A stretch of DNA of 63,808 nt, the filler included, from Hausera hauseri (Eukaryota), in assembly GCA_046269625.1 (NCBI GenBank). It is 10 parts of 10 records of this genome, joined end to end, with 100 filler letters (N's around TTAATTAATTAA, not from the genome) between each part and the next. Parts side by side here need not be neighbours in the genome. Positions count along the whole stretch, not along the records: positions 1 to 7,353 come from JBJURY010019786.1; positions 7,454 to 15,346 come from JBJURY010889845.1; 8 more parts are not named here. The stretch is one strand, 5' to 3'. Below are positions 1 through 59,330 of this stretch, piece by piece. Every line of letters starts with the position of its first letter. Position 1 is the first letter of the stretch. The notes beneath the pieces are model-generated. The model searched no databases. It was not told the origin of the DNA and saw nothing but the letters and a program-made list of their open reading frames with translations. The translations under genes and the position numbers were made by a program.

Positions 1-190
1 CCGATCGATTCGATCAATACTGCACTGTGCAGCGATCGATTTGTGAAATGTGCAAAAGTGCCCTTAGCAACGGTGCCAAACGGAACCGTTGCCTAGCACT
101 TTATGGATCGATAGTGCTCCGGGTGCACTATCGATCGGCACATGTGCAAAATCGATTTATCGATTAACCCCCCTGGGGGGGGCTGTGCCC
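1..190. repeat. ATCGAT-rich multi-hairpin repeat (MITE-like end)
   Basis: Perfect 12-bp stem GATCGATAGTGC-7nt-GCACTATCGATC (106-136), imperfect stem AAAGTGC..GCAACGGT/ACCGTTGC..GCACTTT, and CCCCCCTGGGGGG. Similar ATCGAT-rich pieces occur at 7454-7515 and 30868-30945. Confidence 0.5.
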
Positions 191-199
191 GAATCCCCA

Positions 200-1260: not shown

Positions 1261-1794
1261 TCGCAAAATTGTCTGGGGTGCTCCAACGAGAAATATTCCC
1301 AACTAATTTTTGTTTTAGTTTTAACGGATTTTTTTTGCTGCAATAAGACATTATTACTAACTACACCCGCGCCTCTTCGACACCTATACTTACTTTACAC
1401 TATCGTCTGCTAGGTGGATCTGATTCAAAAATATCTAAGGACCAACAAAATTTTGCCGACATTCCCACTATAAGTGTACCGTTAAATTCACCTCTAACCC
1501 CGCCATCCACTGCAAATCTACCTTGCGTAGAATACTTTGTTGACAAGAAACACTCTAGACGGACGTGGTTAGACTTTCACGCGGCTTAATTGAAATCAAA
1601 TAATATTGTCAACTCGATTTTTAAATCAAATAATTTGCTTATACCCTTTCCTTCTAACATTAAGTCGCAGCTTCCCAATTTATCGGACATTTTCCAAAGT
1701 AGTGACCCATATAAAACACTAACTCTTAAAAATCACCGAACCATCCCTAGTTAACATCATCCATAAATATTTTAACGACAACACCATAGGAACA

Positions 1795-2475
1795 TTGAAA
1801 CCCTCAGAATTTCTACAAATCTCACCAACTCAATTAAGTACCCTTGGCGTTAATCAAGCAAATAATGCCGATTTACTAGGCAGGTATTTTCTACAGTCTT
1901 TACGAAGAGACATACGTGCACTATTGACCATAGTAGGGGGCACATCGTCACTACAAAAACTAGCACAATTGGCTGACAAAAGCCACGAGATTTTACATGA
2001 ACATACAGCCCCATTAGTAGCCGCTACGCTACAAGCACCAACAACTCAACAAGCTAGAGACATAACTAATCTAAACTCTCAGATAAATTCTTTACGAGCC
2101 GAAAACGCCAACATTCACCAAGCAATTTCTCCACTCACGTCAAAAATCAAAGCTTTGAGCATGCCTAGACGAAATCGTCGCGATGCGAACAATAGCCGCA
2201 CATCATCCCAAAATTTAGGGAATGGAAGGTCACCTACACGGTCAATGGTGTGTTACTACCACACAAAATTTAAAGATAACTCCACTAAATGCTGTTTAGG
2301 TTTTATATTTTATGCTCCCCATTTCAAACGACCCGACATTGTCTGTATTTATCATAACAAATTTAATTCTAAAGCACATAATTGTGTTACAGGTTGCACT
2401 TTTGTTAACCTATCTAATTCACCACGACCTACTCTTTCCAACAACATAAGTCCTGTGCCTTCAAAAAACTCATAA
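1795..2475 (+). CDS. gag: Gag C-terminal half with two tandem Cx2H..C..C (CHCC) motifs
   Basis: MKPSEFL...RYFLQSL capsid-like segment; CYYHTKFKDNSTKC and CIYHNKFNSKAHNCVTGC. Confidence 0.85.
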   Translation: MKPSEFLQISPTQLSTLGVNQANNADLLGRYFLQSLRRDIRALLTIVGGTSSLQKLAQLADKSHEILHEHTAPLVAATLQAPTTQQARDITNLNSQINSLRAENANIHQAISPLTSKIKALSMPRRNRRDANNSRTSSQNLGNGRSPTRSMVCYYHTKFKDNSTKCCLGFIFYAPHFKRPDIVCIYHNKFNSKAHNCVTGCTFVNLSNSPRPTLSNNISPVPSKNS

Positions 2476-2504
2476 AGCCGCCAGATGTTGCGGCACATAC
2501 TGGC
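2463..2504 (+). promoter_or_regulatory. -1 ribosomal frameshift signal (A AAA AAC plus downstream stem or pseudoknot)
   Basis: AAAAAAC at 2463-2469 just before the gag stop; 7-nt spacer; GCCGC/GCGGC stem 2477-2494; pol lies in the -1 frame. Confidence 0.75.
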
Positions 2505-2589
2505 ACATGCAAACGTCTTCAATCTAATAACCGTACCTACGCTGTTTTCACATTAAAAGCCTCCTTAACATCCAAACCCAATTAACCAA

Positions 2590-5500
2590 TTAACTTCCTC
2601 ATTGACTTTGGGGCTGCTGTTTCTTTGTTACCATCATTGATCAAAACACCATTAATCTCACCATCTAACACTAAATTATACACAGCTGACGGTCAAGCCT
2701 TACGCATTTTCAGCACGTCCAAGGTTTCATTTACTTTACTAACATTCTCCGACATTTTCAATTGGATATTCATCGTTGCCGACACACAATCTCCAATACT
2801 TGGATCTAATTTCTTATCTTTCTGCAACCTCCTTGTAGATTGCAAACAACGTCAGATAATAAAAAGCTGTTCAACAAAATCTGCCTCTAAAAATAACCAA
2901 CAAATAATGCAACCTATCTCCCCTATAAAATCGATATTAAAAGAACCATCAGCCGACGCAAATAAGAACGTCATTAATACCAATATAAATAACCCAACGT
3001 TTTTTTTGCAGTCCGGTAATAGAGGAACAAAAAGCGTTGACAAAGACGATTTAAGCAACTCAATTTCTATCGTTTCACACACTAAGTCCAATCAAACCAC
3101 TGTCGTAGAAACAACAGCCTTTACTATGCTTAGACAAGAAATGCAACAATATCTAACCAAAGCTTGTTTGCATACAGTTAAAAGAGACCCAGTATTTCGA
3201 CCAGCTAACAAGACGTTTTATCATATCACCACAGAGAACCTTAGGCCCGTTAGGCAGAAACTCCATCCACTTTCGCCACGCCGTCAACAGGCAGTACAAA
3301 CGGAATTCTCTGCACTCTCGCAAGCTGACATTACAAAACGCTCTAAATTACCATGGGCATTACCACTCCATGTCGTCCCAAAGAAAGATGGCACATTCTG
3401 TCCCTGCGGTGACTATCGACAACTTAATAATGTCACAACCATGGATGCTTATCCCCTACCGTTGATTAAGGATATATTGCATTCTTTACACAAGACTATG
3501 ATTTATTCAACCATAGATCTCGAAAAAGCCTACCACCAAATACCGGTAGCACCAGAAGACATCCCAAAACCGGCCATTATAACACCTTTTGGTCTCTTCG
3601 AATACGCATTAATGCCGTTCCATTTAAAAAACGCAGCACAAGCTTTCCAACGGCACATAGATTCAATTCTTTCAGGCTTGCCATTTGCATATCCATACAT
3701 TGATGACATGCTAGTCGCATAGGCATCGCCCAAACAACACGAAGAACATCTCAGGCTAGTTTTTTAACGTTTACACTACTACAACTTGCAAGTGAACTTT
3801 GCTAAGTGTTCCTTCTTTTAGAAAAAGGTCAATTTCCTCGGCAACGTCATCATACCTGACGGTCACAGTCCACAGCCTGATAGAATCCATCAACTACAAA
3901 ACATCGAGCTACCAAAAACCACTACTGACATGAGTAGTTTACGTGGAACTTTAAATTTTGTTCATAAATACGTCCCACACTGTAGCCAGTTAACTGCTCC
4001 TTTCAATCAACTAGGAGCAAGGCCAAAAAAAGCTCATAAATTGTACACCAGAAATTGTTAAACAGTTCGATAAACTCAGCGACAAGCTCAAAACAGTCGA
4101 AATTTTAGCTTACACAAAACCTGACGATGACCTCATTTTAACAACCGACGCATCAACTACAGCAGTAAGAGGTGTTCTTCATCAAATATCTCAAGGTATA
4201 GACGAGCCGTTTAAATTCTTTTCACGCAAGCTGCAGCCACAAGAACGCCGTTATTCTACCTTCGATGGAAACTTCTGGCCATTGTTTTAGCTCTGAAATA
4301 TTTTTCACATTTACTGATTGCTCGTTTCTTCACTATTGAAACGGAGCATAAACCTCTCGTTCACGTAATAAACATGGAACAACCATCACTCCGACAAAAA
4401 CGTCATATTTCATATCTGTCAACATTTAACTTCAAAATTTGCCATATTTCCGGCACAGAAAATTTAATGGCCGATTTCTTATCACGGTCAGGTGGTTCAA
4501 TTACTGTCACGCCTATATTCTCCAAGGAAAATTAATCCAAAATTCCCCCTCCGCAGAAATTCTGAAACAATACAAATCCATGCATCATCGATGGAATAGC
4601 TATGGATACTTCGACATCTAAACAACATTTGCCAATTTTGGCACTTCCTCTCCAACAAACTGCATTTTAACATGTTCGTTCTTTACATCACCCAGGTTTC
4701 AGGGCTACATTCCGCCTTCTCAAACGCCACGTAACATGGCCATCAATGAGGTATGATGTACAGAGCTGGGTTAGGCAATGCGTAGCTTGCCAAAAGTTCA
4801 AAATAACTAAATATCTTAAACCACCATTATTCCATTTCTCATGTACATCCCGCTTTAAGTCAGTTCACATAGATATATTTGGCCCATTACCTTCCAATAA
4901 CGGCCACCAATTGATTTTAACAATGATGACCCGCGCGTCTCGTTGGCCGGAAGCCATCCCTATGTGCTCCATCAATACAGACTCCATTTCCGACGCATTC
5001 ATAAGGATTTGGATTAGCCGGTTCGGTTTATCTCACCCAATTTGAATCGAACCTATTCAAATCTCTAGTTAATCGACTGGGCATAAAACAAATACACACA
5101 ACTTCATACCATCCCCAGTCGAACGGTTTATTGGAACACTTTCATCGCACTCTCAATATCTCGTTAAAAATCCTGGTTGAAACTCATAAGAATTGGACAA
5201 CCATCCTCCCTTTTGTTTTACTCGGGTGGTGCGACACGCCGTCTACTACCAACGGTTGCGCAGCCGCTGAAGCACTCTTTGGTACCACAATTCGTGAACT
5301 CTTCGAGTTCACAGATTTGGATAACACACCGACTGACGAAACCATTAGGTCTGCACAAAATCACTTCGTCCAATTAAGCCAAGATTTTTCTGCAAAATAG
5401 TACATGATGACAAATCATGCTTACCTGACTCGCTATGTAATGCAAAGTTCGTGTGGATAAAAAATTCTTTACCTTCCGGATTCCAACCAAACTCTATAGG

Positions 5501-5990
5501 ATCATATAAAGTCCTCAGTCTAACTTCACACACGGTTACAATACTCAAAAACGACAAAGAACAAAATGTGCATATATTTAACATAAAACCTACATTGTTC
5601 CTTAATGACACACCGGATCCAACAACTAACTTTGCACATACATTTCTTGACTCCTTCAATACTTCTTCTATTATACCTCCACGACAAACTGCAATTTTAA
5701 AACCCGCATCAAAGCAAAAAACTACGCTAAACGACATACAGACTAGTTTTCAGGCTGCTGGCACGTCAAATCAAAATTTAACTTCCCACATTCCAACTCA
5801 GCAAACAATTAAGCAACATAGCAAAAACGCAAGACAGTCACCTTCAGCAAATTCAACAAAGAACAAAATACCAACAAAATTCAACGTCTTGTCCATACAA
5901 AGACTCAACAGTTCACTTACATCTGTCGGCCTTATTTCTTTACTCGTTACATTAACACAGTGTCACCTTCGTAACGGGAGGGGCAATGTG
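2590..5990 (+). pseudogene. pol: Disrupted pol (PR-RT-RNase H-IN) of A1
   Basis: ORFs 2625-3722 (YIDD), 4746-5045, 5131-5400 and 5451-6029, interrupted by stops and frameshifts. Confidence 0.9.
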
Positions 5991-6332
5991 GTGCCGCTGG
6001 AGAGGAGAATGGAAGAAATAAAACAGTAAGAATAACATTAAAGGAAGAAAATTAAGATATGAGGATTATAACAATGAATGAAACAGACGATGTATTGACA
6101 TTATGAAAAAAGATTAAAGAACTAGAACCGTTTTATAAGAAAAAAACAGACGGATTAAGCTTCTATGGCAGAACACTATATAGCTACTTCAACATGCTAC
6201 GAGTGGGATGTAGTTATGAAAACTATAATCCAATTATGATAGTAGAAATACACTCCGATGCAAGAGCAAAAGAAACGATAGAGAATATAATAAGGGAACT
6301 GAAACCTCAAGAGGTTGGGGAACAACCATTAG

Positions 6333-6911
6333 GTGATACACAGGATGTTTCAGTACAAACAGAAGCCCGAAGGAGAGGGAGACCAAAAAGGAACAAAAAT
6401 AAGCGTCATTCGAAACATAAAGGATCGAAACGAAGAAATTGTACGGCGACTGCTATTAGCAGGAACGGATATAATGCCAGAATCTATAGATATAGATTCG
6501 TTATTAAGAACGTTACTAGCCAAATTACATACGTCATTTGCATCGTTTGATATGCAAGTGGTAATTACTGACGAATTGTTTCAGACGTTACGTAACGATA
6601 TGCTAAAAATTAGCAGGCAGTTTTATGAAAATATTGGTGAGGAAAAAATTACTGAACTGCATGAGCAAGATATATTAGAAAATGTGTTCGCGACAGAAAT
6701 CACGCGAGAAAAAGTACGAACAGCTATAGCTTATCTGTTATATAAAGTGATTGTGATCAATTACCAGACCCAAAATTTAGAAGAAATTGAGCGAAATATT
6801 AAAGCAGCGGTTAAAGTTTTAAAAGACTCGTTTGAAAATTGGGTCCAGTGTAGAGGCGGGTGGTTCGCAAGTCTTACGAAAAATGTAAGAGTAAAAGGGT
6901 ATGGAGGATAA
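6333..6911 (+). CDS. Bcl-2 family-like helical domain carried by the retroelement
   Basis: BH2-like FENWVQCRGGW; BH1-like VFATEITREKV (compare BOK FSAGITWGKV) at the expected ~50-aa spacing; BH3-like QTLRNDMLKISRQF; BH4-like IDSLLRTLLAKL. Preceded by the AT-hook-like RRGRPKR in the overlapping frame. Confidence 0.72.
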   Translation: MIHRMFQYKQKPEGEGDQKGTKISVIRNIKDRNEEIVRRLLLAGTDIMPESIDIDSLLRTLLAKLHTSFASFDMQVVITDELFQTLRNDMLKISRQFYENIGEEKITELHEQDILENVFATEITREKVRTAIAYLLYKVIVINYQTQNLEEIERNIKAAVKVLKDSFENWVQCRGGWFASLTKNVRVKGYGG

Positions 6912-6965: not shown

Positions 6966-8800
6966 ATGGGAATGACGATGATGGGGATCTTCCAGATAAT
7001 CTTAATAACATCCTTGCTGATGCCGAAGGCAATGGGAATAGTAGCATACGATTGCTCAAAACCTAAGGAAGGACAGACGTATTCCTTAGTTGATCTAGAA
7101 AAATGTCCTGAAACTGATTCAGAACAACTAACGACAACCAGCGGTCATAGATATTGGATTTATCAGGAGTCTGAATTTATAAAATCCAAAATCAGTGAAT
7201 GTTATGTGAAGAAATTTTTCTTTCTGTTCAATTGTGCGTATTATTCCCGAAACTCTGCAATAATTGAACCAACAACATCATTTCAGCCGATAATAATATC
7301 GCGCGCCGAATGTCAAGATGCTTTTAAAATCGGAGTTATAACGATACAGATATNNNNNNNNNNNNNNNNNNNNNNNNNNNNNNNNNNNNNNNNNNNNTTA
7401 ATTAATTAANNNNNNNNNNNNNNNNNNNNNNNNNNNNNNNNNNNNNNNNNNNNTGATTATCGATCCTGGGGGGGGGGTGGCCCAGTGCGCTCCTTTCCCC
7501 CTACTAACGTGATAGTTGTAGATTTCTATAAAACAGCGATGCGATTACAAAAGTAATGTTTCACAGTGTTACTAAACTGTATGTCGAGAATAAAAATGCC
7601 ACTTACAAGATGAAATGTATGCTTTTAGAAGTTCTGTTATAATATGGGAACCTCCTTCTGGAAGAAACTGTAATTTTATCAAAATTAAAGAACTGAAATT
7701 CAATGAAGCCACCGGGAAGCGCGAAGACCTGGCCGAGTATTCTACACCAATGATGCTGATTTCTAATACCTATGGTTTGAAATTTATTAAAAAGGAAATA
7801 ATTTCACTTTACGCGGTTGTGCTGTTTGCAACTAGTTATGAAGCATTTTTCGTCGCAGAAATGGAAATACGTGCACGGACTTATCAACTTGAAATACAGG
7901 ATATTAGTATTGAAGATTACTTGAAAAATCGAGACGACAATTTTACTGCAAAAGACAAGTTGGAATAGCCGAACTATACATAAAATGATAACAAACAATT
8001 GTATGCTAGACATGGAAATTATGAGAACAAAACTAGCTCTCATTTATGCTAATCCTGAGTTTGTATCACCAACAATTCCTATGATAGGAGGAATTTTCGA
8101 GTGAGTCACCGGTGAGGTTTTATTGACCTACGAATGTGAAAAAAGGATGTATCGATTAATGTCGAAGAAAAACGGTGTATACAAGAACTCCCGGTTATAT
8201 ACCAAAGCATTCCCCGGTTAGCCATTCCACTTACTACAGTTTTCTTAGATAACGCGACTTAGCCAACAATCCTTAAAGATTGTAAGGCAAGCTTAGGGGA
8301 ACCCATGTTTAGACGTAGCGAAACGGATTGGGTAAGTTTGCCAAACGGAGGTATTACTGACGCTCCAATTAAGTTAACGGGAACTAATCTCGTGAAACGA
8401 ATCAGGGATGATAAATTCCAGGACACCTCATTAAAAGGAATTTATATACCAAAGGAAATCAAAGCTTTTAAACAATTTCTCTCTTTTCGCAACAACAAAC
8501 GCAGGCACTGAATCGAAAGGTCGCCTCAGTACTAGACGATACTCGATATCAAGCTAAATGGGAATCCTTGCTCGGAGTAAACCATTACCAACCAGTAACC
8601 ACGGAAATATTGAACAAAATTTAGGAAGATTTTTAATCTTTGGACAAGCCGCATCTGGATTTCTAGCGATGTATTTTATGACACAACTAATTAAAACGGT
8701 CATCCAAGCAGTAATAAACGGGTATGAAATATTTATATTGACGAGGTTCCCGTGTAAAATATTGACCGCGATCATCACACCGTTTGGAAATCAGACGTAG
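6966..8800 (+). pseudogene. env: Envelope glycoprotein, chuvirus/Anakin-type (gB-related), disrupted
   Basis: Signal peptide then AYDC..YSLVDLEKC..YQ..EC..C..C-x5-G, matching the chuvirus-G N-terminal cysteine pattern. Continues after the gap (IIWEPP, CMLDMEIMRTKLAL, CIQELPVIY) to the hydrophobic C-terminus GQAASGFLAMYF..CKILTAIITPFG. Confidence 0.8.
7354..7453. other. Artificial contig linker (N44-TTAATTAATTAA-N44); also at 15347, 21221, 26029, 30743, 36237, 43233, 55492 and 59737
   Basis: Identical 100-bp spacers containing stops in all six frames. Confidence 0.98.
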
Positions 8801-9118: not shown

Positions 9119-12100
9119 ATGTGCTACCGACAGCATATGGACTATCCTAGAATTTTGCACTCTCCACGAAAACCTGGAAATATAGACACTAGACCACCTG
9201 TCTGGGGAAATCAAAGATTACGGACCTTCCAGAATGTAGCACCGCTTACTAACAACCGAGAGCCATTAATTAATACTCATGAAATGGAAGAGTCGAACAT
9301 CGAAAACAATGAATTATATCCAAATGAGGAACTAAGACAACTAACAGAAAACATAGTATCCTCCCCAGAAATCAGGATAAAGGGTCACAAGATATCGGCA
9401 ACGAAGCGCCCAAAAGTTGCATCAAATTGTTTTGGAACAGTAATAGAAGGGAGACCCTTCTCCATAATTACTATTGAAGATTGGGAAGTTTATGCCCTAA
9501 TGGACATAGATTCAGAGATGTCATACATCAAAAATGACTCAATTCCTCAAATGTTAAGGGGACAGTTATATATACCATCTACGAGGGACCCCGGAAGCAC
9601 AGGAGCTTTCGGCAAAATGTCGAAACCGATGTTCAAATGGAACCCAGAAGTTCAAATAGTTGGACTGTTTTTCCGTCACGCATTTGCAGTTATAAAACAA
9701 TTAAATGACCATGTACTTTTAGGCTACGACTTACTGAAGTGACTACCAAATGTAGCAATCGACTTCCAAACAGGAGGACTGAGAGAGATTAGGCCAAAAA
9801 GGGATAAAACCGCTAAAGATAGAAAATTTGGGAAAGTATAGATCCCAGTAGAGGAAAATATTCCACCATGAACAGGGATAATAATTTACTCTCAAGTTTA
9901 CCAAGATTATGAACAACCAGTATACTTTGAACCAAAGGAAACATTAGATCCGAATATAATATTCAGTAATATATTGACAAGAGTACACTCGGGTCGTGTG
10001 CCAATCAGAATAGTGAATAATGCACCGACTTCAGTAAAGCTTCATGCTTACACTACCTTAGGGAATACCTATGGAGTGTCGTCCATAACCGTTGAAGAAA
10101 AACCTTATAAATATGCCGAATTTCCGCCACATGTTGAAACTAAGCATTCACCTAAATCTTACTGCTGATTTTCTAAATTATTGTGTTGCTATAAATCAAT
10201 TATTGCTAAAGACGACGAAGATATCTGTAGAGCAAAAGCTTTAAAATTGACTATCCCGATTAGGAAAAAGTCCGAGTCAAATGAGGAGATAGATCTTGAA
10301 GATCAAAAGATGCCGAAATGGTGTCCTCTGCCACATTCATTAAGACCCGAGGTAACAAAAGAAGTCGAACGGATGCTTAAAGCCAATATAATTCTGCCTA
10401 GCTATAAATCGTGGTACTCACCAATTCTTATGGCTAAAAAGAAAGGCACTACAAAACATCGATTTTTATTGATTACAGGGCACTGAATATCCTTATGATG
10501 AATGATTCTTTTCCGTTACCATCAGTAAAAGATGCTTTGGGTAGGCTTTAAGGAGCAAAATGGTTTACTACTCTGGACTTACAATCTGGATATTGGTAAG
10601 TGGAAATTGAGGGTGAAGACTTCTATAAAACCACGTTTAAAACGCACGACGGTGTCCATGAATTTAATGTCATGCTGTTTGGTATTACCACCGGACCAGC
10701 TATTTTTACGAGAGTGATGAATAAAATGTTAATGGGTCAAGACCACTCTTTTGCATACTTAGATGATGTAATGATAGCGTTGAAGACAGAAGAGGAACAT
10801 TTAAAAGGTAATGAGCACACGTTGATGAAATTAGAACAATTAGGATTAAAGTTGAACCCAAAGAAATGTAAATGGGCTCGGAATGCAGTATCCTACCTTG
10901 GACACAAAGTTGGAGAAGGAGGATAGAAATCAGATAAATCATTACTGAATATGATATCTGATTGCATGGAGCCACAAAATCAGAAAGAGTTAAGACACTG
11001 TCTAGGTTTATGTGGATATTACGCCACCTATGTGCCGGTAATTCGAAAATAAATGCACCTTTATATCGTCTACTTAAGAATTAAATGGAAATGGACAGAT
11101 GTCGAACAAAAATCTTTCGACGAAATGAAGAAAATTTTAACAAGAGAACCAGTCTTAAGATACCCATATTTCAATTTACCTTTCATAATTAAGACAGATG
11201 TCAGTAAAGAAGGTATTGGATACAAATTAGCTCAGAAACGAGAGAATGAAGAGTTGGAACAGCCAATCGCTTATGGGGGACGATTCCTAAAAAAAGGCCG
11301 ACAAAAATTATTCCGTTACTGAATTAGAAACCTTAGCCGTTAAAGTAGCACACTGATGTTTTAACGTTTACGTATACGGACAAAAAATCATAATTGTTAC
11401 TGATCATAAAGCCGTCACAACCCTGAAAGTGCTGGAAAACGATCCCACCTGCAGGCGTAACAGATATATTGAAAAAATTTCAAGATATAATATTGAATTT
11501 TAGTATAAGCCTGGCAACAAGCACCTTGACGCTAATGCACTATCAAGACTACAAACTAAGACAAGTGCAATTACGATAATAAAGAAAGCTCAGCTAGAAG
11601 AATTAATAGACCATCGACACGTTCTGACAATGGACAAAGCAATAAAAATCTCAACCGAACAGAAGAGCGATAAAGTTATCCAGCAGATTATAGAATTTGC
11701 TAGAAATGATACAGTACCAAAAGGACGACAGCTTAGGAAACATCTGCACAGGCATGGACACAATTATTGTGTTTTGAACGAGAAGGGTCAGGAGGTTATT
11801 TTGTATTATAAACAAAAAGAAAGAAAATTAACAGTCATCCCAAAGGATTTGCGCATCGACGTTTTAATGACGGAACACGATTCATACTTAGCAGGACAAG
11901 TAAGAAGACATTAGAAAGAATATTGAATAAATACTTTTGGCCCAGTATCTATATTGACATAAAGAATTGGGTAAGTGCTTGCGAAGTATGTGCAACTAAA
12001 CAGAAAAAGACGAAGAACTACACGGCAGAGCTAAAAACAATTGCCGTACCAGACAGACCTATGCAAGTCATGTCGAAGGACATTGCAGGACCATTACCTA

Positions 12101-12840
12101 CGGCCCGAAAAAACAATAAATATATATTGACTTGTATTGATCGACTGACTCACTTTGTCGAATTGGTGGCGATGGGCGACCAGAGGGCAGAAACTTTGGC
12201 CGAAGCTGTAGTAAGAAGAACAATTTGTCGATATTGGCTCCCAAATTAAATACTGACAGATCGAGGAAGAAATTTTACTAGCGAACGGTTTGAGAAAATT
12301 GCTAAAATATTCGAGATAGAGAAGTTAACTACGACCGCATACCATCCTAAGTGTAATAGAATGGTTGAACGAATGAATGCAACAGTCTTCATTCTTAAAC
12401 CATTCTTCATGATGTATGGACGTGCGGCTGTGTTACCCACAGATTTAGGGATGATACCATACACGCTCAATACCGAAGATTTAGAACAGAATTTTGCAGA
12501 AGTGCTCCAGACGCTATTACAAAAATGTCGGGAAATTGCTAAAGAATTGTCTCAAGAATATAAGGAGCAGTTTAAAAGACAATATGATAAGAAAGCAAAA
12601 TGACACGACTTAGAACAAGGGAATTGGGTTTATGTACATTACTAAGTAGCTAAGAAAGGTACGACGTTAAAACTGACTAATACAGGAAGAAGACCGTACG
12701 AAGTTACTAAAGCTACGCCAACTACGGCATATGTCAACAAGAATGGAATAGAAGAGGTCGTATCAGTGCAGAGAGTCGTTCAAACAGATATACGATTAAA
12801 CAAACATTACAATTTACGACCACGCGAGACAAATTTCATC
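9119..12840 (+). pseudogene. pol: Disrupted pol of B1: PR (~9440-9740), dUTPase-like segment (~9830-10090), RT (~10300-10930), RNase H (~11160-11550), IN (~11870-12800)
   Basis: ORFs 9119-9742, 9974-10168, 10181-10486, 10600-10926, 11053-11322, 11630-11914, 11923-12249 and 12361-12603, with canonical motifs in gypsy order. Confidence 0.92.
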
Positions 12841-43232: not shown

Positions 43233-43387
43233 NNNNNNNNNNNNNNNNNNNNNNNNNNNNNNNNNNNNNNNNNNNNTTAATTAATTAANNNNNNNNNNNN
43301 NNNNNNNNNNNNNNNNNNNNNNNNNNNNNNNNTATAAACTTTGTTGCGCGTTTCACATAGATTTTAATATGAATTTTAAAAACTTTA

Positions 43388-43903
43388 TGTGGTACTGGTC
43401 CCTTGTAAGGAGCGACGGAAACTATTAAGAATTTAAGTACAAAACTTTATTGACAATAAAAGAAAATATACCAATAAAATAATAGCTGTCAATCAACACA
43501 ATCAAATCGATTAGTAGGTCTGATTACGAGTCCTTTCGTCTGCTAGCAATTTCAAAATTACAAGAGTCTAATCACAGCTACAAATGTACACTGTACCATA
43601 GCATTTATATAGCTGCTTGTAGACAGGATTTGGTGGGAGAGATTTTCTTAAATTTTCTCTGGGTTTTTCTCAGTTTTACATTGGTTAATTCTAATTAACT
43701 GCAAGTAGTTAGTTATTTTCTTGATATTTGGTGTGCATTATTTTAGTAAATTTCTGTATTTTCCAGAGCAAGTCAATGAATTAATTGATTTCAACTTGGA
43801 ATTTGTTATTAATACACTTTCAATTTTCACTTTCAGTTTCGCTTTCGTTTCTATTTATTTACAATTTTATACATGGTAGTTCACAATCATTGTTTTTATA
43901 ACA
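43388..43903 (-). repeat. 3' LTR of B2 (~516 bp)
   Basis: On -, PPT AAGGAAGGAGAAA then TGTTAT; CCAAT near 43680, CTATATAAA near 43605, AATAAA at 43446-43451; ends ..ACCACA. Confidence 0.7.
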
Positions 43904-44043
43904 TTTCTCCTTCCTTAACGGCCCCCCATAAACGATTCATTCGTCCGCGTAAGCCCGCTTCCGAATCCGACTCATCTCGCGGAGATCGCGGGTCGAAGTG
44001 GTATGATGTAGTGGGTTTCTGGGGAAATATCTCAACTATCTTT

Positions 44044-45105
44044 TTACTCTCCATTAGAGAAATATCTTAGTCTGATAGCTTGCGCTCTACATACTGGGCA
44101 GGTCGTTTTCCCGCTTTTCAGGGTCCACGTTTCTAAGTAGTACCGACAGTATTTGTGGGTACAATCCTTATTGTCCAACACCACAAATCCTTGGTACAAA
44201 TTTGCATCGCAAACGGGACATTCTTTTTCGCCTCCGTCTATATCTGCACGGTTTTCGTCCACATCAATATGTTCAAATACGAGTCCCTTTATATCTTGGT
44301 ATAAATATCCATATAGTCGTTTCTGTTTATGATCTATAGAGCTTTTCTTGGTGTCGTCTGACACGGTAACCAATGTCCATTCAACGATTTCTTGTTTATC
44401 CAAGTCGGGTATTCCGGTTTTCTTGTATTGCCTCTTGAGTTGCACTCGAACTTGGGTATCCACTGAGATAGTTAGCCGATTAGTTCCGTTTTTCGACTGG
44501 AATATCGAGGCTAGGTATTTGCTAATCGTTATGTCTTCTCGGGCGCATGCGTTTCCGCTCACAATTCTTCTAGGAACGGTAGAGACAGAATATAGCTTCT
44601 TTGATCTTACCCCTTGCTATAATATTCAGCCATGACGAGTAATCGGGTATATTCTTTAACCGGACCGAATTCGGTTCCTATGATTGGGGCTGGTTCTTCC
44701 AAGTTTTTTCGAAGTACATTCACCTCTGTTTTGGGTGGTCCACATTTGAGGGTTTTCATTCCTGGTTCACTGGATCTCTCAGCTTCCTGTCTTAGTTTTT
44801 CCGTGGGTTTTGTTGCTTCTTCATTGATGCGTATAAGGCTGCTAGTTGACGGTTTTATCTCCAACCTGGAATTATATCTCTCGAAAGGTATGCTCGTGCA
44901 TCCTTTGGACTTCGCATCGCGTATAACCGGATTAGTCGATTGTCCTCTAGACTACATTTCAATCCATTCGGTATTCTGCTTTCTTGATCGATTTCTGTTT
45001 TTTTCGATTTTTGTTTTGGTTGTCAGTTTGAGAACTGTTACATGTTGTAGGAAGTCATCGATATCGTAACTGAGACTGTGCTGAGTTCTTCATCTTTTCG
45101 GCCAT
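44044..45105 (-). pseudogene. 3' accessory ORF of B2 ending in a RING finger
   Basis: CPVC..CTHKYCRYY..W..CPVCR (C3HC4 with one Cys replaced by Tyr) in ORF 44044-44562; upstream frames 44607-44864. Confidence 0.78.
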
Positions 45106-45229: not shown

Positions 45230-46565
45230 GGTCTTGGTACCCCTTTACCCGTTTACCTCTGTTGATTCTGACGTCCTTTATTATAGTTTTTGGAAATCAA
45301 GAAAATCGTCGCTGTTAAAATGACAAGAACGAAAATTGACAAACTAATTATAGCTATTATCGATAAGTTATTCGGTTCAATAAAATTTTCCGTAGTTATT
45401 GCATTTTGGGTACTAATACGTGAACTTCGTCGTTATGGTTTGTACTGTAAGAGTTTCATGTCGCTTACCATCTGCGGTTATTTGAATTATGTAATCATTT
45501 CGTGATTGTAAGGATTTGCATTCGATTTCCTGTTTATTTCTCTGCAAGATTACAATTTGGTTGGTGTGTAAGGTGCGACATTCGATTTTAATTTCATAAT
45601 CCACCGTTTCTTCAACATAAAATACAATTCTATTATGTCGTACTAAAAATTTGACAGGTATATTCTCCAATTCTTTCTCGGGTATTTTACTCGAAGTATA
45701 AGTATAAGTAGTTGGAGTTGTACTTGGAATGGTAGACGGTTTTCTCGTAGTTGTTGGAAGGGAAATCTTCCATATTCCGACTTTTGGGCGATATCCTCTC
45801 AAGTACTCGGTTCGTTTGGGTAGGTATTGTACAAATCAAATTCCAATTGGTATTCATGATCTAAGGGTATTCTGCAGCACGGATTTTGCTGTTCTCGCGC
45901 AATATAGCAATATTTCACAGGGGGGTCGATTTATGTATCGGTATGAATCGGATGGAAATTTGTCTGTCTCCCGGTAATTCTATTTTGGTTGTGTGTTTCG
46001 GATGCATTGGTTTTGAAGTTTTTAGAAATACCTATAATGTTGAAATCTAAGAGTTTTTAAATGGGTTGGTGTTTTGGACTATCTCGTCTGCCTTGTTTTG
46101 GCTCGCGCCGTTCCGTTTAGGCATTCTAATTTCGGATTTGGCAATTATATAGGCTTGGGCTCCAGGTAGATTTTAATAGAACATCTGAAATTTGTACTTA
46201 TGTTTGTCCAAAATCTATATCGCAACATTTCTGATAAGCTCCATATGGAAAATCACATGTCTTCATTGCAGAACTCATTTGATCTACAAATATTTGAAAT
46301 TTTACGTGGTTCTTCACAGATTCACTTGCCTTAAACCAGGCACAAGGTTTTATCCAATTCATATCGTAGACTCTAAGCGACTGTAAATTCTGTATATCTT
46401 TTCGTCTTGCTGCATGTTGTTCCTTTTTTGTCGGAATATATGACATAACTCCGTGGATATCTTCTACTAAATCCATTGTCCATTGGGTCTTTACCTTTGA
46501 TATATATGAAGCGATTAGCGATAGTGCAAGAATTATTTGTGCATATGATATCGGTCTGGTTACTA
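45230..46565 (-). pseudogene. Second type-I membrane glycoprotein-like ORF (B2) with an FN3-like domain
   Basis: RPISYAQIILALSLIASY; CDFPYGAYQKCCDIDFG; Thr-rich PTTTRKPSTIPSTTPTT; LQSRNDYIIQITADG..TVQT; TM IIAIISLSIFVLVILTATIFLI. Confidence 0.68.
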
Positions 46566-46599
46566 TCGATGACGTTTTCTTTTCATTCTTGGTTTGACT

Positions 46600-49500
46600 T
46601 GGATTTTCTTTATTTAAGCGCAGGTTATTGTTTATTTGGCCTTATTTCCGATTTGACTACTTTTTGTATTGATACGATCTCTTTTTGCCATTTTTATTAA
46701 TATAAACTGTAGTTGGTGTGGTTCTGATAACTTCGTAAGGTCTTCTGCCAGTTCGAGTGAGTTTCAGAGATGTGCCTTTCTTTGCGACTGGGTAATGTAC
46801 ATAAACCCTATTTCCATGCTCTAGATCATGTGGTTTAGCCTTCTTATCGTATTGTCTGTTAAATTGTTCTTTATATTTTTTAAACAATTCTTTGTCTATT
46901 TCTCAACACCTTTGTAGCTTTGTTTGTAATACTTCAACAAAATTTTGCTCTAGATCCTCCGTTTCCATTGTATATGGTATCATTCCTAAGTCCATGGGTA
47001 ATACAGCCTCTGCCATACATCATAAAAATGGAGTAAATTCTGTTGCAGGATACGGTATAGTGTTTATGGCGAATTGCGTGCCCTCTAAAAATTCATCCCA
47101 ATCCTTCTGGTCTTTCGCAACTACTGTTCGTAATATTCGTATAACTCTGCGTTTATTCGTTCAACCATTCCGTTACATTGCGGGTGGTAAGCTGTTGTGG
47201 TTAATCGTTCAATTTCAAATATTTTGGTAATTTTTTTGAATAGTTCGCTCGTAAAGTTTCTTCCTTGGTCTGTTAGAATTTGTTCGGGAGGCCCGTATCT
47301 ACAGATAATTCTCCTCACTACAGCTTCAGTCAGAGTCTCAACTTTTTGGTCCGCTAATGACATAAGTTCGACGAAATGAGTTAATCGGTCTATACATGTC
47401 AGAATGTATTTATTATTCTTATGAGTTGTAGGTAACGGTCCTACAATATCCATTGACACCATTTCCATTGGTCGGTCCGGCACGTTTATTGGTTTACGTT
47501 CGGGAATGTAGTTTTTCACTTTCCTCTGATTAGTTGCGAATACTTTGCAAGCACTTGCACAATTCTTCACATGGATGTATACGCTCGGCCAGTAATATTT
47601 ATTTAATACTCTTTCTAATATCGTTTTCCCTGTATCCGGCTAAGTACGAATCATGTTCGGCCATTAGTACTCCTGTGCGTAATCTTTTTGGTATGACTAC
47701 CAACTTCCGTCCTTTTTGCTCATAATACAGTACATTTTCATTACTTGTGTCTCCCGTTACGCAGTATTTATGACCATGTCTTTGTAAATGTTTCCGCAAT
47801 TGGTGGACGTTTGCTGTTATTTCATTTTCGAGAAACTCAATGATTTTTTGTATACCTTTGTCCTTCTTTTATTCAACAAAATTTTAATGGCTTTATCCAA
47901 TGTTAGAGCTCGTTGTCTGTCTACTAGTTGATCGAGCTGAGCTTTTCTTATTACAGTTATTGCGTTCGTTTTAGTTTTAAGCCTTGATAGCGCATCGGCA
48001 TCGGCATGTTTGCTTCCGGGCTTGTATTGAAATTCAATGTTATACCGTGAGATCTCTTTGATCCATCGCTTGAGCCTGTACTTTGGTTATTTGCTCTACC
48101 TTTCAAAGTTGTAACTGCTTTGTGATCCGTAACAATTATAATCTTCTGTCCGTAGACCTATAAGTTAAAGTTTCGTAGAACTTCTTTTACAGATAACGTT
48201 TCTTATTCCTTAACCAACTAATTCTTTTCAGCATTCTTTAGTGACCGTCCTTCATATGCGATTGGATGTTCTAGTTCTTCATCCTCTCGTTTTTGAGCTA
48301 ACTCATATCCAATGTCTTCTTTACTGGCATACGTTTTAACTATAAACGGAAGGTTAAAATCAGAATATGTGAAAAAGGGTTCTATAGTTAAAATTTTCTT
48401 CATTTTATCGAAAGCTTTTTGCCCGACGTCCGCCCATTTCCACTTAGTTCCTTTTTTAGGTAAGGCATACAAATGTGCATTTATTTTTGATTTATCTGGT
48501 ACATAAGTGGCGTAATAACCACGAAAACCTAACCAATGTCTCAACTCTTTTTGGTTCTGGGGTTCCATACAATTCGATATCTTATTTAATAATAATTTAC
48601 CTGGTTTCGGTCCTCCATCTCCAACTATATGCCCAAGATAAGATACATCGTTTTGGGCCCATTTACATTATTCGAGATTCAATTTCAATCCACCTTGCTC
48701 CACCCTCATGAGCGTGTCCTCAATATCTTTTAAATGTTCTTCTTCTGTCTTCAATGTAATCATTACGTTATCCAGATACGCGAACGCGTGTTTCAGTCCC
48801 ATTAGCATCTTGTTCATCATTCGAGTAAAAACGTCGGGTCCAATAGTTATCCCGAATGGCATTATAATAAATTCGTATACACCGTCGTGTGTTTTAAACG
48901 CAGTTTTGTAGCTGTCTTCTTATTCTATTTCTACTTGCCAATATCCGGATTGCAGATCGAGAGTGGTGAACCATTTAGCTCCGGAAAGTCTATCCAGGGC
49001 TTCTTTTACTGATGAAAATAGGAAAGAATCTTTCATCATAAATGTACTTAATGATCGATAATCGAAACTAAATTGGTGCTTTGTAGTACCTTTCTTCTTA
49101 ACCATGAGTAGAGGTGAGTACCAAGATCCATAGCTTGGTATAATGGTGTCGGCCTTTAACATACGTTCGACTTCTTTTGTTATCTCTAGCCTCAAAGAGT
49201 GCGTAGGGGATATCAGTTCGAAATTTTTTTTTCCTCTAAGTCTATTTTATCATTGGAGCCAGGCTTTTTCTTAAGTGGAATTGTTAGTCGCAAGGCTTTG
49301 ACTCTGCCAATGGCTTCTTCGTCTCTCGCGATGACTGAGCTGTAATGACAGAGTAATTCATAAAATCAACAGCATGCTTTCGGCAAAAATTTAGTTTCAA
49401 CGTGAGGTGGAAATTCGACACATTTGTAAGGTTTTTCTTCAACAGTTATTAACGATACTGTACACGTATGACCCAAAGTGGTATTGACATACAGTTTGAT

Positions 49501-50440
49501 CGGCGTTGGTGCGTCATTAGCTACTCTGATCATCACGTGGCCTGTCAATACTCTTGTTAATACGTTGCGAAGTACGATACTTGGGTTTAGCGATTCCTTT
49601 GGTTAAAAATAAACTGATTGGTCGTCATCTTGACGTATCTGAGCATATATTAACACCTCTGGTCTAGGCAGAATGTTCTTGTCCACTAGAATCGATACTT
49701 CTCCAAATTGTCTATCTTTGATGGTTTTAATTCCTTTTATCGGACCGAGCTCTATTAATTTCCCTGAATGAAAATCTATTGCTACATTAGGTAATTGCCT
49801 TAACAGATCGTATCTTAAAACTACATCGTATGTTAGCTATTCCATTACTGACAATTCGTGATAAAAATATTGTCTCATTATGCGAATTTCTGGCTTCCAT
49901 CGGAATTTGCTTTCCAATGATTGTCCAAAAGCTTCAATACTTCCTGGATCTGTTGTTGGACGTGGGTATAATTGTTTTAGTAGGAACTGCGGTATTGAGT
50001 CATGTTTTATCAGTGATATCTTGGATCCTGTGTCTATCAATGCGTAAACGTCCCTATCTTCTCACTGAATTTTCGCGAAGAATCTACCTTCGATTACTGT
50101 TCCATAGTAATTTGGCTCTATCTTTTAATGTTGAATCGTTGATACCTTATAACCGTTAATTCTAACTTTGGTGGTTGCAACTGGTTGGTCGATTAACTGT
50201 CTTAACTCTCCATTTTGATACAGTTTATTATTCATGCAATTGGCATTTTCCGTTTCCTGACTTACAACTGGCTGCTGTATTTCTTGGTTCCTGAAACTCT
50301 GTATCTCATGGTCTCTTGAGAATGTTGATCGTATTTCGTTTGGTCTGGGTATTCTGGGTGAATAAATTATTCCATGGTCGTCGACCGCTGAACGACGATA
50401 TGGGACAGATATTCTTTTCGTTTCGCGCACCTTAAGCAAT
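46600..50440 (-). pseudogene. pol: Disrupted pol of B2 (PR, dUTPase-like, RT, RNase H, IN)
   Basis: IDTGSKISLI, WFTTLDLQSGYWQV, AYLDNV, HPIAYEGRSL, HDSYLAG, SMDIVGPLP..ILTDQGRNF..NGMVERIN. Confidence 0.92.
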
Positions 50441-50810: not shown

Positions 50811-52428
50811 ACAAACTCTGCTCGAAAAAATGAACTTAACATGACCACTAGTCTAGCGCGAAGGGCTACCAGGAAGTTACCCCGAGAAGTAAATTGGTCC
50901 AAACTATTCAAAAAACAAGAAAGACAGAACGGTCCGTCTTTAGTAACAGTAGATTCGAAGATATGTTACGGAATTTAACTGGGAATAATCACGGAAACGA
51001 GCCCAATTGGCTACTCAATTTCTTGACCGTGATGATGTTAATAAGACAAATGGGAGCAGTTATAATATATGACTGTGACAAATTCAGACTTGGCCAAAGA
51101 TATTCATTGATGGATTTGGAAATGTTCGAAGATGCGAGGCCACATAAATTAGAAACAAAAGAAAGAAGATATGTACTGTATCAGCAACGAAAGTTAGTTA
51201 CATTAGACGGGATAGAATGCATGTTACGACGATCTTGCAGTATTTTTCATTGTGGATTACTACACGAACACTCATCTATAATCAAGCCGATGACTCTACT
51301 AATTCTAATGAACTTAAAACGCCAGCATTGTAAGCAGACTAGAGAAACAGGCAGGTTGAAATTGGATGGTATGGAGCTAGAAATGCATCAAGGGAAAATA
51401 ATTAGAACATAAAAAATAGCAGCGTAAAGATTAGATATGCATACGGATCACTGTAACGGTGCAGAATACGATACTGGAAGGGGATTGGAGTCAAATATAG
51501 TGGTTCCGGATTTCTACGAAACTGAAATGCGCACACAATAGGTGAATGTTTTATAGCGCTACCAAGCTCTATACGGAAAACCAAAAGTGCCACATCCAAG
51601 AGGGCACCAATGTTTTTTAGAAGCTCAGTATTAATTTGGGAACCATCCGCCAAAACCGAGTGAAATTTTATTAAAATTAGAGAACCTAAGTTTAGCGAAA
51701 CAATATGAAAACGCTACGTAAGTATTACGCATGTAGATGTAGCTGAACGTCCCACACCCACCACATTCATTTTCTATACTCATGGATTAAAATTTGTGAA
51801 GAAGGATGTACTCACAAGGTGCAATGTAGTAGTGCATGCCACTAATTATAAAGCATTTTTTGTTGTTGAGACTAAGATAAATGTCAAAACGTTCAAGTTT
51901 GAGACTCAAGATATTCGAATTGAGGATTATTTAGAAAATAGAGACAACTATTTTTACTACTAAAAACAGGCCAGAATAGCTAAGTTATACCACAAAATGA
52001 TAACGAACGAATGCAAATTAGACTTAGAAATCATGAGAACCAAACTGGCTTTAATATATACAAATCCTGAGCTACCATCACCAATAATTGCGATGAAGAA
52101 AGGCGTTTTTAGTCTAGTGACCGCAGAAGTCCTACTGACTTATAAATGCGAGAAAAAAGACGTACCAATTAATGTGGAAGAGAAGAGATGCATACAAGAA
52201 ATTCCGGTAATATATCAGGACATATCGAGATTAGTAATGCCAATTACCCGAGTATTATTGGCAAACTCCACACAACCGACCATTCTAAATGATTTTAGAA
52301 CCAGTCTAGGAGAACCTATGTTTAGACGTAGTCAAACCGATTGGGTAAGCTATACCAAACGGTGGTATTATTACGCCGCCCACCAAGTTAACTGGACAGG
52401 CAGCATCAGGATTTCTAGCTATATATTT
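50811..52428 (+). pseudogene. env: env of B2, inverted relative to the rest of the element
   Basis: IIYDCDKF..YSLMDL..YQQ..EC..FHCG..H..C..TG; CKLDLEIMRTKLALIY..CIQEIPVIY; GQAASGFLAIY. The env C-terminal tail (GFSCKILIAIITSFG) remains on - at 50760-50810. Confidence 0.85.
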
Positions 52429-55045
52429 GGTGTTCTCTACCATAATGTTTTCGATGACAAATTCATTGCTTAAGGTGCTTCTTGATAATTTACGTCGGAA
52501 AGTTCTCATTGTTTTAACTGCATTGTATATAGATTTCTCTTTTTCATCTATTACATCGCCACAGAGACTGGAGTGGTTTACTATGTCTATCAAGTTTTTC
52601 ATAAGTTCATTCAGCCTTTTGTTTTCTGCACAAAAAGTTGGTATGGACATTTGCCTCAACTCCCTAAATAAATCTGCGTTAAAATGAGTCTCCTCTCGTG
52701 TTTTTCGCGGTCTACCGACAGGACGCTTCTGTTTCGCTATAACTGGTGCGGTCTCGTTGGATGGTACTAAATTCCTATCATACTGTTCTTTATCTTCGTC
52801 CGTTTGCTAGTATTCGAAATACATTGCTGCATCTCGAACTACCACGATTCGTCCTACACACTGATCTGTTTTATCCTTCCTTGTGGCCTCTTCTTTTTTC
52901 TCCTCTGTGATGACCGTTACTACTATTCGATTCGTTTCGCCTAAGATAATTCAAACATCTATTAACTGCTCCAATTTGTCCAATATTCTACATCTAAAGT
53001 AGAGTCTATAGTTCAGTTGGCTTGCGTAACCATTACCCATTAGTCCCTGTACCAGGTCTCTTACACAGGAGTGCGTCGTAAATTCTTACTTATTCTCGTC
53101 CATCCTGTTCGACGTTATCCTTACCTTAATCGACTCTTCGGGTCTAGCCCTTAAGATTTTAGCATACTCCTTTATTAAAAGCTTTGGTGCGGCACTATAG
53201 ATTGTACCCTGGCTAAATAGTTTAATCACAGTAGGTACTAAGTGTCTCAACTGATTTTCGGTAGATTTAGCTGTAGAATGTTGGATTCCTTCTATGCGAA
53301 CATTCCTTAATCTTTAATGGAATTTACAGATCATGTTCCGCTTATCTGTAAAGTTCGTTTCTTCAATCATTTTATATATGTCCTCGAGTATCGTCATTTC
53401 TTGTTTGCTTTTTATAAATTTTAATTGGGGTAATGTATCGAATTGAGTCCTGATGTCTATTTTCGCCCTCATTGTATCTAATTGTGGCGCATTTTCTTCA
53501 AATTGCTTCTGTACTGTAGACTCACTTTCGGGAAATTCTTCTATACGGATCTCTACTAGTTCACTTAGTCTCATTATTAGTTGGGACTATTCATTTAGCT
53601 GATTAGCGATTATTGGTTTTGGCCAGTATTGCTTTATCTAGTGTTTTGTATGCGTCCTCCAATTCATCATCCGGACCATTAATAAAGCCAATAATCTGGG
53701 TGGCATAGTTGAACTCATCTTTGTACTCATCGAGTTCAAGGATACAAATCTTAATTACGTTCTGTGTTTCTTTATCATTCATACACATAATTCTGTTCCT
53801 CAAGCTGTATATTTAGGAACTTTCCTCGTTTTTGATTTGAATACCATTTTCTAGACTTATATATTGTTTTGATGCGACGGAAGCAATTTTTATCATCTTC
53901 ATTAAGGATGGAATATCTAGCGAGTTTATGCCCAACATTTTCAAATCAGTTTGGTTTCGTTCCTTGACTAGTTTTTCTTTTAGTCTCCTGACCATGTCGA
54001 ATCTAATTTCATTCGTAATGCGCTCGAGGTTATGCGTTAACCTTTTAAGTTTAGGATTGGCCGCTAACGTAATCCATAATACTTGGGCTTTATTTATTCT
54101 TGTTTCAACATTCTCATTATGTTTTCCCCACATCTCTGGAACTTTTACTCCACTTTTTTTCCATGTTTCTAATTCGTGTTTCCATTTTGCTAACGTTTCT
54201 CGTGACATGTCAACGAGTTGCTCTAGGTCTATAGCTTCGCTTAGTTTTCCTTCACTATATAACTTCATTTTTCTCTACAACCTTTTCCCAAACTGCTGCT
54301 CTTTACCAGAAATGTCTACTTGTTCGCCCATCCCTTTAAATTTTTCCAGTTTATGTTGCAATATGTCTGGGTCGAGGCAATTGATTCTCATTCTCTTTAA
54401 TTCATCAGCATTTTTCCATGAACGTCTGATTTTTCATTTTTCTGTTTGAACCTCGCACGTCGTCTCTTTTTCACTAGTGGGTAATGGGCGTATATCATTT
54501 ATTTCGTTAACGGACTTTGTTAACTCTTCTATTCCAACAGATGTAACTAAACCACTTTCCGGGGTATTCAAAGTGAACTCTACGTCGCTTTCTAGAGCGA
54601 GTTAAATTTCTTTTACTCTGTCTGACTTTTCATTATTCATCGGAGATTGTGGACGATCTTTACGTTTCCGCTTAATTGATGGGCTGCGACCTCTATTCTT
54701 TGTCATTTTCAGTATTAGTGGTTCCATAAATTCTTTTTCTTCGTCGACGTCTATAGTTTTGTTTACTTTTTCCACAATATATTCCGGCTCCGCATGTAAA
54801 TCTACTTCATTCGAAGTCTGGAACTTTCCCAGTTTTTCTACCTCTTTGTTAGCCATAGGGACATCCTTTTCCCATGCCATGTCGGTAAGCCTTGGTAAAG
54901 CGATAGAACGTTCATATTCAATTTGTGGCTCGGGAAGGCCATGATATACTTCTAGTAATCGTAATTTGTGCTCATACTCATTCCTGGCCATTAAGACTTT
55001 GGGATCATTAGTATCAGGCTGAGCCTTCAAGAAACGTCGTAAATC
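52429..55045 (-). pseudogene. Long helical region between the gag knuckle and env, with AT-hook RPVGRPRK and a partial homolog of the Bcl-2-like domain
   Basis: ORFs 54602-55030, 53813-54268, 53603-53803, 53314-53574 and 52306-52659; LNELMKNLIDIV..SIYNAVK..VIENIM aligns weakly with B1 IDSLLRTLLAKL..ELFQTLR..ILENVF. Confidence 0.55.
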
Positions 55046-55273
55046 TTATATCTCGATAATTATACCCGTGTCCTTACGGATACCATAAATTGCTTCTAGA
55101 TTTTCATTCCTAATTACATTAGTTTTGTTAGGCTCAACAAACGAAACACTTCGTGGGTTTGGACAGGACCTTGCTACGTGCCCTTCTTGTCCACATGTAT
55201 AACAAATTAGGTTGCCATTTCTACCGACTCTTTGTTGACCGTCTTCATTTACTGGAGATTTTGATCTACTCAT
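55046..55273 (-). CDS. gag: Gag nucleocapsid region with a CCHC zinc knuckle
   Basis: CYTCGQEGHVARSC. Confidence 0.85.
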   Translation of the reverse strand: MSRSKSPVNEDGQQRVGRNGNLICYTCGQEGHVARSCPNPRSVSFVEPNKTNVIRNENLEAIYGIRKDTGIIIEI

Positions 55274-56470: not shown

Positions 56471-56539
56471 TGAATCTTGTAACGTTTATCATAATATTTT
56501 ATTATTATAACAGTGGTAAGTTGATTTTATTCATATAAG

Positions 56540-59320: not shown

Positions 59321-59330
59321 AAGCCTTACC

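Follow-up and report, generated by a model that had tools for sequence, protein, structure and literature searches.

Remnants of Burro-like Ty3/gypsy retroelements with a probably inherited gB-type envelope domain in Hausera hauseri

Env and pol remnants in the window

The window, by which we mean the whole 63,808-nucleotide stretch of Hausera hauseri DNA that was analyzed, contains ten segments of at most 12.2 kb each, joined by nine identical 100-nt linkers, each of the form N44-TTAATTAATTAA-N44. The elements discussed here lie at three loci, designated A (the tail of segment 1), B (segment 2), and C (segment 8). Locus A carries a Bcl-2-like domain and the N terminus of an env, and locus B carries the remaining part of an env followed by pol. 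Locus C belongs to the same family as locus B, with its env inverted. The env and pol features, and the linker that falls among them, are as follows.

6966..7353, + strand: N-terminal env piece of element A, truncated where the segment stops, with signal peptide and YDC motif (PF24664 E 4e-13 over positions 4-122 of the 653 in the profile)
7354..7453, no strand: artificial linker N44-TTAATTAATTAA-N44, inside the flagged span 6966-8800
7503..8794, + strand: env middle and C-terminal part of element B, decayed, in several frames with in-frame stops (profile matches 7594-7938, 7976-8149, 8146-8505, and 8612-8776)
~51011..52460, + strand: decayed env of element C, in opposite orientation to the remainder of the element and missing an internal stretch ahead of the anchor (PF24664 E 2e-12 and 6e-18)
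9423..12809, + strand: pol of element B, with protease-like region, RT, RNase H, and integrase, decayed (Pfam RVT_1 8e-28, RT_RNaseH_2 5e-17, Integrase_H2C2 7e-11, rve 3e-14)
46626..50114, - strand: pol of element C, with PR-like region, RT, RNase H, and IN (Pfam; best PDB match Ty3 RT 4OL8, E 3e-48)

The original prediction described conserved env motifs and a C-terminal hydrophobic region in two places. Both places were found to hold four fixed motifs, namely, YDC-x8-YSL-x-D (7047-7094 and 51068-51115), C-x-LD-x-EIMRTKLAL (8000-8041 and 52012-52053), CIQE-x-PVIY (8176-8202 and 52189-52215), and GQAASGFLA (8642-8668 and 52394-52420), together with hydrophobic signal and C-terminal segments (Kyte-Doolittle 19-mer peaks 1.5-2.0). 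The three env pieces tested against Pfam Monjiviricetes_fusion (PF24664) all scored above the curated cutoff, with the E values listed above. In addition, a profile built from 73 database relatives only gave five matches within 6981-8776 (E 3e-19 to 1e-6) and a further two within 51026-52356 (4e-18 and 3e-43). Since this relatives-only profile matched both loci, and its best domain on reversed frames reached only E 0.64, the env matches are not due to chance.

The env of element B ends in a hydrophobic anchor (~8642-8790) and shares 67% DNA identity with 51509-52396. The env of element C lies on the + strand and its own gag and pol lie on the - strand; approximately 260 nt are absent near its C terminus, before the anchor, and the env tail resumes on the - strand at 50801. 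An inversion of ~1.6 kb at 50810-52430 covers most of this env. No env copy in the window can now yield a full env, as all are decayed or cut.

As the window env genes are broken, the fold was predicted not for them but for an intact relative, P0013, which is 29% identical to the window middle piece (E 2e-24). The P0013 env model had a pLDDT of 82. All of the PDB matches listed for it were herpesvirus gB (best E 1e-13, TM ~0.33/0.39), at 10-12% identity. Among viral models, the best matches were the glycoproteins of Tacheng tick virus 4, which we take to be a chuvirus, and of chu-like and xinmo-like viruses (E 1e-40 to 5e-31), at only 16-22% identity to P0013. The env family profile also reached gB by sequence, weakly (E 0.006). 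Because the P0013 fold matches gB and viral chu-like G, and because the family profile reaches gB, the env is, as modeled through this relative, a gB-related class III fusogen of the Monjiviricetes (chuvirus-like) family and not an F protein. The original prediction of a chuvirus-type, gB-related fusion glycoprotein was therefore right as to family, with PF24664 recovered on all pieces rather than an unrelated glycoprotein class and the relative folding like gB and chuvirus-like G.

The pol regions contain RVT_1, RT_RNaseH, Integrase_H2C2, and rve in the gypsy order, and relatives carry Ty3_capsid or Retrotrans_gag. The protease region of element B had no Pfam match of its own and was placed by tblastn with relatives. 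No Pfam match to a dUTPase-like domain between PR and RT was detected in 9302-10159, nor in 13 relatives at E 0.05 (the published Burro call used HHpred). The pol of element B is 70-73% identical in DNA to 50114-46626 of element C. The Ty3/gypsy backbone that had been proposed, as opposed to BEL/Pao, is upheld by the Ty3 RT best PDB match and the gypsy Pfam domain set, and the exclusion of BEL/Pao rests on these domain matches. In element B, env leads into pol on the same strand. In element C, a Gag CCHC knuckle lies upstream of env and pol lies downstream, which, inversion aside, gives the order gag-env-pol. Judged by these domain matches, the window loci are Ty3/gypsy elements that carry a gB-type env, of the GAG-ENV-POL variant, and are Burro-like.

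Other elements are also present in the window. A different, env-less gypsy element occupies 1-5990 (+), with an RT only 25% identical to those of B and C, and has relatives in segments 3, 7, and 10. At the junction near 5987 it ends in a purine tract and TG, followed directly by element A with no evident LTR, and the GC skew flips. Segment 9 (55592-59736) consists of nested long inverted repeats together with tandem repeats of 43-95 nt and is possibly a foldback or MITE-like element. In keeping with an animal genome, an ORF at 60239-60790 (-) has a match to Pfam ASC, the family of amiloride-sensitive sodium channels (E 2.5e-9).

Composition of the span 6966-8800

The span 6966-8800 had been taken as one gene. 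It contains the linker at 7354-7453, which is identical to the linkers between plainly unrelated segments, and the two sides of it probably belong to different families. To the left, at the end of segment 1, lies an open 129-aa frame that opens with a signal-like stretch and the YDC motif. To the right, approximately 45 nt of an unrelated G-rich repeat is followed by env in several frames with in-frame stops. The G-rich repeat, ATCGAT...CCTGGGGGGGG, occurs at 159-182 and 7459-7475, near the starts of segments 1 and 2 (2 matches in the window, 0 in 100 shuffles), and may be a small interspersed element.

We compared both sides with the env of locus C. The N-terminal piece from segment 1 was identical at 30 of 104 positions (29%), and the middle pieces from segment 2 were identical at 40 of 59 (68%) and 47 of 63 (75%). 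The resulting N-terminal/middle identity ratio of 0.40 was smaller than in any of the 36 relative pairs, whose ratios had a median of 0.86 and a minimum of 0.63 (binomial P 6e-4, computed at that minimum). P0021 was left out of this comparison owing to a misaligned piece, and P0007, P0015, and P0017 were without the anchor motif. Blastn between the N-terminal env pieces of A and C returned no match, and the regions upstream of env in A and C gave no alignment. The segment 1 piece was nearer to database proteins, with 42-46% identity to P0159, P0160, P0013, and P0010. Since the N-terminal identity to locus C is much below that of the middle pieces, 6966-8800 is probably not one gene but a composite of two element families on either side of the linker.

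Alternatively, the span could be one contiguous env of one element, split only by an assembly gap or an excised insertion; recombination between families may have exchanged its N terminus. The two sides are colinear and nonoverlapping on one strand (profile positions 4-121, then from ~170-198), and a tree test does not reject the grouping of the two N-terminal pieces, albeit at low power (p-AU 0.28; 106 columns); therefore, contiguity with recombination keeps an appreciable share of the probability. However, an identity ratio lower than in any pair of relatives, the lack of a blastn match, the unalignable upstream regions, and a linker shared with unrelated joins all count against a single env, and we regard it as unlikely, though well short of negligible.

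Accessory domains, element ends, and a second membrane domain

Beyond env and pol, the following features were identified in the three elements.

6023..6238, + strand: weak candidate for a ubiquitin/SUMO-like domain in element A (E 3.1 with a 13-relative profile, matched over nearly its full length)
6540..6896, + strand: Bcl-2-like domain of element A, sharing the env frame and separated from the env signal region by one stop codon (E 4e-4 to Pfam Bcl-2, short of the curated cutoff)
55157..55204, - strand: Gag CCHC zinc knuckle of element C (Pfam zf-CCHC E 6e-7)
52693..53130, - strand: spacer of element C, with a possible ubiquitin-like domain at 53130-52906 (Ubl profile E 0.35) and a GRP-R/K motif at 52728-52693 (Pfam AT_hook E 0.28), both weak
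44044..44616, - strand: open 190-aa frame of element C, located past pol and ahead of the putative 3' LTR, that encodes a RING finger at 44223-44086 (Pfam zf-RING_2 E 2e-5, zf-C3HC4 4e-4, just below curated cutoffs)
43333..43916, - strand: putative polypurine tract of element C (43916-43904), then TG at 43903 as the likely start of the 3' LTR, read from sequence; no 5' LTR in the segment
12842..14200, + strand: second membrane domain after integrase in element B, with signal-like segment, cysteine-containing ectodomain, and anchor, decayed (hydrophobic peaks 1.85 and 2.76)
45300..46570, - strand: counterpart in element C of this second membrane domain, likewise after integrase (hydrophobic peaks of 1.59 and 2.89)

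A profile built from six relatives alone found the Bcl-2-like domain at 6540..6896 with an E of 1e-10. The predicted model had a pLDDT of 57, and its top 21 matches among 48,161 chains all belonged to the Bcl-2 family. The best of these had a Z of 8.5 (rmsd 3.4 over 109 residues), compared with 6.3 for the first unrelated chain; for a helical domain, such a score does not settle the matter by itself. Foldseek with this model gave no E below 0.001, though all matches listed were Bcl-2 family, and the Bcl-2-type clusters from an Atlas feature search (0.81-0.88) are no more than a lead. When the Bcl-2 alignment was searched against PDB sequences, the top match, Crov588 (E 1e-5), was disregarded as a sum of weak repeat matches; the next 59 matches listed were Bcl-2 family (E 0.04-0.4). 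A word-index search with the Bcl-2-like ORF found nothing. Of 29 clade proteins, several of them partial, 6 have the domain at this place, and 4 of these had no part in building the profile. Searches of locus C for a Bcl-2-like domain found none, and in locus B the region upstream of env in which it would lie is absent. We dropped the domain as a novelty, as a BCL2-like domain is reported in Burro (PMC6431247).

The two ubiquitin-like candidates are the only matches of the 13-relative Ubl profile in the whole window; both are weak (E 0.35 and 3.1), lie at the expected places, and are without Pfam or PDB support. Annotation of 52430-55200 (-) as a LINE was rejected, because this stretch holds the CCHC knuckle and spacer features of element C. 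Tandem 56/86-nt repeats lie at 55241-55491 in the gag region of this element, upstream of the zinc knuckle. Element C spans ~11.3 kb from the CCHC to the putative 3' LTR. An ORF of element B at the place matching the RING frame (14514-14990) had no Pfam match and aligned over 36 residues at its start only. Among the decayed frames scanned, a subset of all frames from elements missing 5' parts, no BIR, MATH, ankyrin, dUTPase, AIR1, or Smc domains were found.

The post-integrase domain of element B is homologous to 46581-45479 of element C. At least two hydrophobic segments follow integrase in 12 of the 15 pol-bearing relatives and in both pol-bearing window loci; the exceptions are P0169, which has one segment and an Ig-like domain there, P0158, which has none, and P0028, which ends inside integrase. 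The position of this domain is thus conserved across the clade, and its sequence is very divergent, with stretches between the hydrophobic segments that are highly variable in length and mostly unalignable across subgroups. The ectodomain matched no Pfam family and, in the Atlas, only weak unnamed bacterial clusters. What we take by eye to be FN3-like motifs in some relatives had no Pfam match. A thin literature search for a second membrane domain after integrase returned only PMC13524379, in whose available text two specific phrases did not occur, and gave no description of such a domain. The signal-plus-anchor membrane domain after integrase may be new.

Herpesviruses and paramyxoviruses have separate attachment proteins. 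By analogy, one polyprotein might supply a two-part entry system, in which a gB-type fusogen before pol would act with a fast-evolving type I membrane protein after integrase as its attachment or receptor-binding partner. We consider this proposal speculative and rather doubtful. If it were true, the elements, with their Bcl-2-like and RING cargo, would be complex enveloped viruses and not plain retrotransposons. If the post-integrase domain is a virion surface protein that works with the fusogen, the retroelement would have a divided entry machine, offering a handle on the choice of target cell.

Origin of env and comparison with known systems

An index-free search returned 189 env matches at E 0.001 or better, whereas a word-index search with the decayed env piece returned nothing. 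The nearest env relatives were other gypsy polyproteins, at 30-46% identity, encoded by single ORFs of up to 4,057 aa. Env was fused upstream of protease or pol in 11 of the 20 top relatives scanned and in all 13 further relatives from a second search. Intact relatives combine in one polyprotein gag, often a ubiquitin-like domain, sometimes a Bcl-2-like domain, an internal signal, a gB-type fusogen with its anchor, PR, RT, RNase H, integrase, and the second membrane domain. In P0162, the order is CCHC, ubiquitin/SUMO-like, Bcl-2-like, env, ankyrin, PR, RT, RH, IN; ankyrin was present in 2 of 13 relatives. Several of P0009, P0011, P0157-P0159, and P0166 contain more than one aspartic protease domain (two or three), of which one follows integrase, and other relatives carry ankyrin, C2H2, or Ig domains.

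An env tree was built with FastTree from 105 of 150 matches, those covering at least 380 profile positions, with a window row only 35% filled. The window env fell inside a 16-row clade with all env-pol polyproteins (SH 99), apart from the other 90 rows; in this tree of unnamed matches, it groups with retroelement envs and not with stand-alone glycoproteins. The RT and env trees of 16 relatives have six small groupings in common and differ at deeper nodes. These trees are FastTree reconstructions with long branches for the window rows, without a Burro reference, BEL/Pao RT, or named chuvirus sequences. The RT/env pattern fits long coinheritance and not a fresh capture. Because the env and RT trees, whose comparison the original prediction had proposed, largely agree among relatives, and because relatives carry env at the same position, env appears to have been inherited with pol in an old clade. 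We therefore favor, with a probability of roughly 0.86, the reading that the loci are fossil remnants of Burro-like Ty3/gypsy LTR retroelements in which gag was followed by accessory domains, env, and then pol, and that this env was inherited with pol and not freshly captured.

The original prediction instead proposed an independent env capture, on the premise that gypsy env genes are usually of the F type. That premise is not supported, gB-type env being reported as widespread on Ty3/gypsy elements (PMC13524379), and neither is the capture itself. An independent, recent acquisition of a chuvirus glycoprotein by a gypsy element would account for chu-like glycoproteins being the top structural matches among viral proteins, and the branch of the B and C RTs is indeed long, with identities to relatives of no more than 42-44%; moreover, GAG-ENV-POL elements are not monophyletic in POL according to PMC13524379, so that more than one acquisition or exchange is conceivable. 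However, the closest env relatives (30-46% identical, against only 16-22% for viral G) are retroelement polyproteins with env at the same position, these form one clade apart from stand-alone glycoproteins, the env and RT trees largely agree, and the layout has already been published for Burro. A recent capture is thus improbable. Less credible still is the reading that a gypsy pol simply has for a neighbor an Anakin-type BEL/Pao env or a stand-alone endogenous viral glycoprotein gene. Solo and Pao-linked chuvirus glycoproteins are common in mosquitoes (PMC7642597), and the env of locus C is on the strand opposite to pol. Nevertheless, env and pol of locus B are on one strand, with the former leading into the latter; the domains of pol are those of Ty3/gypsy; and, apart from the local inversion, env, env tail, pol, and the post-integrase domain follow one another identically in B and C. 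As far as the assembled sequence goes, this linkage, common to two diverged copies, refutes the stand-alone and BEL/Pao readings unless both copies are misassembled.

If the elements are coinherited Burro-like elements, their env would work as follows. The internal signal would thread env into the endoplasmic reticulum and be cleaved just before the YDC motif, and past the env anchor the chain would be back in the cytoplasm, where the element's protease could release pol. Herpesvirus gB trimers are established to fuse membranes. By analogy with gB, trimeric env on a budded particle may fuse membranes, allowing the element to move between cells. The Bcl-2-like domain would probably keep the producer cell alive, and together with the RING domain it might blunt cell death or host defense.

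The Burro elements of planarians, as described in PMC6431247 (2019), which cites Grohme 2018 and Jurka 2007 for the giant gypsy-like Burro/GYPSM1 elements, have an env with matches to mononegavirus fusion proteins between BCL2 and protease. Their single ORF has the order Gag CCHC, ubiquitin/SUMO-like, BCL2-like, env, PR, pol; the polyprotein is ~4,900 aa, the element exceeds 30 kb with an internal region of up to 25 kb, and the host is a triclad, with decaying Burro fragments in Dugesia japonica. A role in blunting cell death or host defense is relayed for the RING-BIR region of Burro1 by PMC13465017. P0162 has the same domains as PMC6431247 gives for Burro. The window loci resemble Burro in the order Gag CCHC, ubiquitin/SUMO-like (a weak candidate here) and BCL2-like, env, PR-RT-RH-IN, in the BCL2-like domain directly before env, present in locus A, and in cargo related to apoptosis or ubiquitin, here a RING finger after pol in element C. 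They differ in that the RING lies after pol and that element C spans only ~11.3 kb, against an internal region of up to 25 kb. No BIR, MATH, or ankyrin was found in the window frames scanned, and the window copies are frameshifted, an in-frame env-pol fusion not being visible in such decayed copies. Section 7 of PMC6431247 does not mention a post-integrase membrane domain for Burro. No named Burro sequence was returned among the relatives.

The window loci share with the gB-type "ancient errantiviruses" of PMC13524379 a Ty3/gypsy pol and a gB-type env (signal, ectodomain, anchor) between gag and pol, but the decayed window copies would fail that study's intact-ORF filter. PMC13524379 reports the GAG-ENV-POL order in Platyhelminthes, Nematoda, and Bryozoa and 114 arthropod gypsy elements with chuvirus-like glycoproteins; flatworm elements in its supplement 1 are ~12-18 kb (9 rows), and the words "Bcl-2," "Burro," and "polyprotein" do not occur in its available main text. 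Anakin, a mosquito Pao element with a chuvirus glycoprotein (PMC7642597), has an env of the same superfamily, but the backbone here is Ty3/gypsy, with env upstream of pol. The G proteins of Jingchuvirales and other Monjiviricetes and herpesvirus gB have in common with the window env the PF24664 family and the class III fold, the latter as predicted for relative P0013; in contrast, their identities to that relative are as low as given above (viral G and gB, respectively), and here the fusogen is a polyprotein domain of a retroelement. Earlier publications already report a gB/chuvirus-type env on gypsy, its location between gag and pol, and the BCL2-like domain that precedes it. The window loci add a divergent lineage, with an RT at most 44% identical to the relatives found, and the Burro-type layout extends through a wider clade of unnamed polyproteins.
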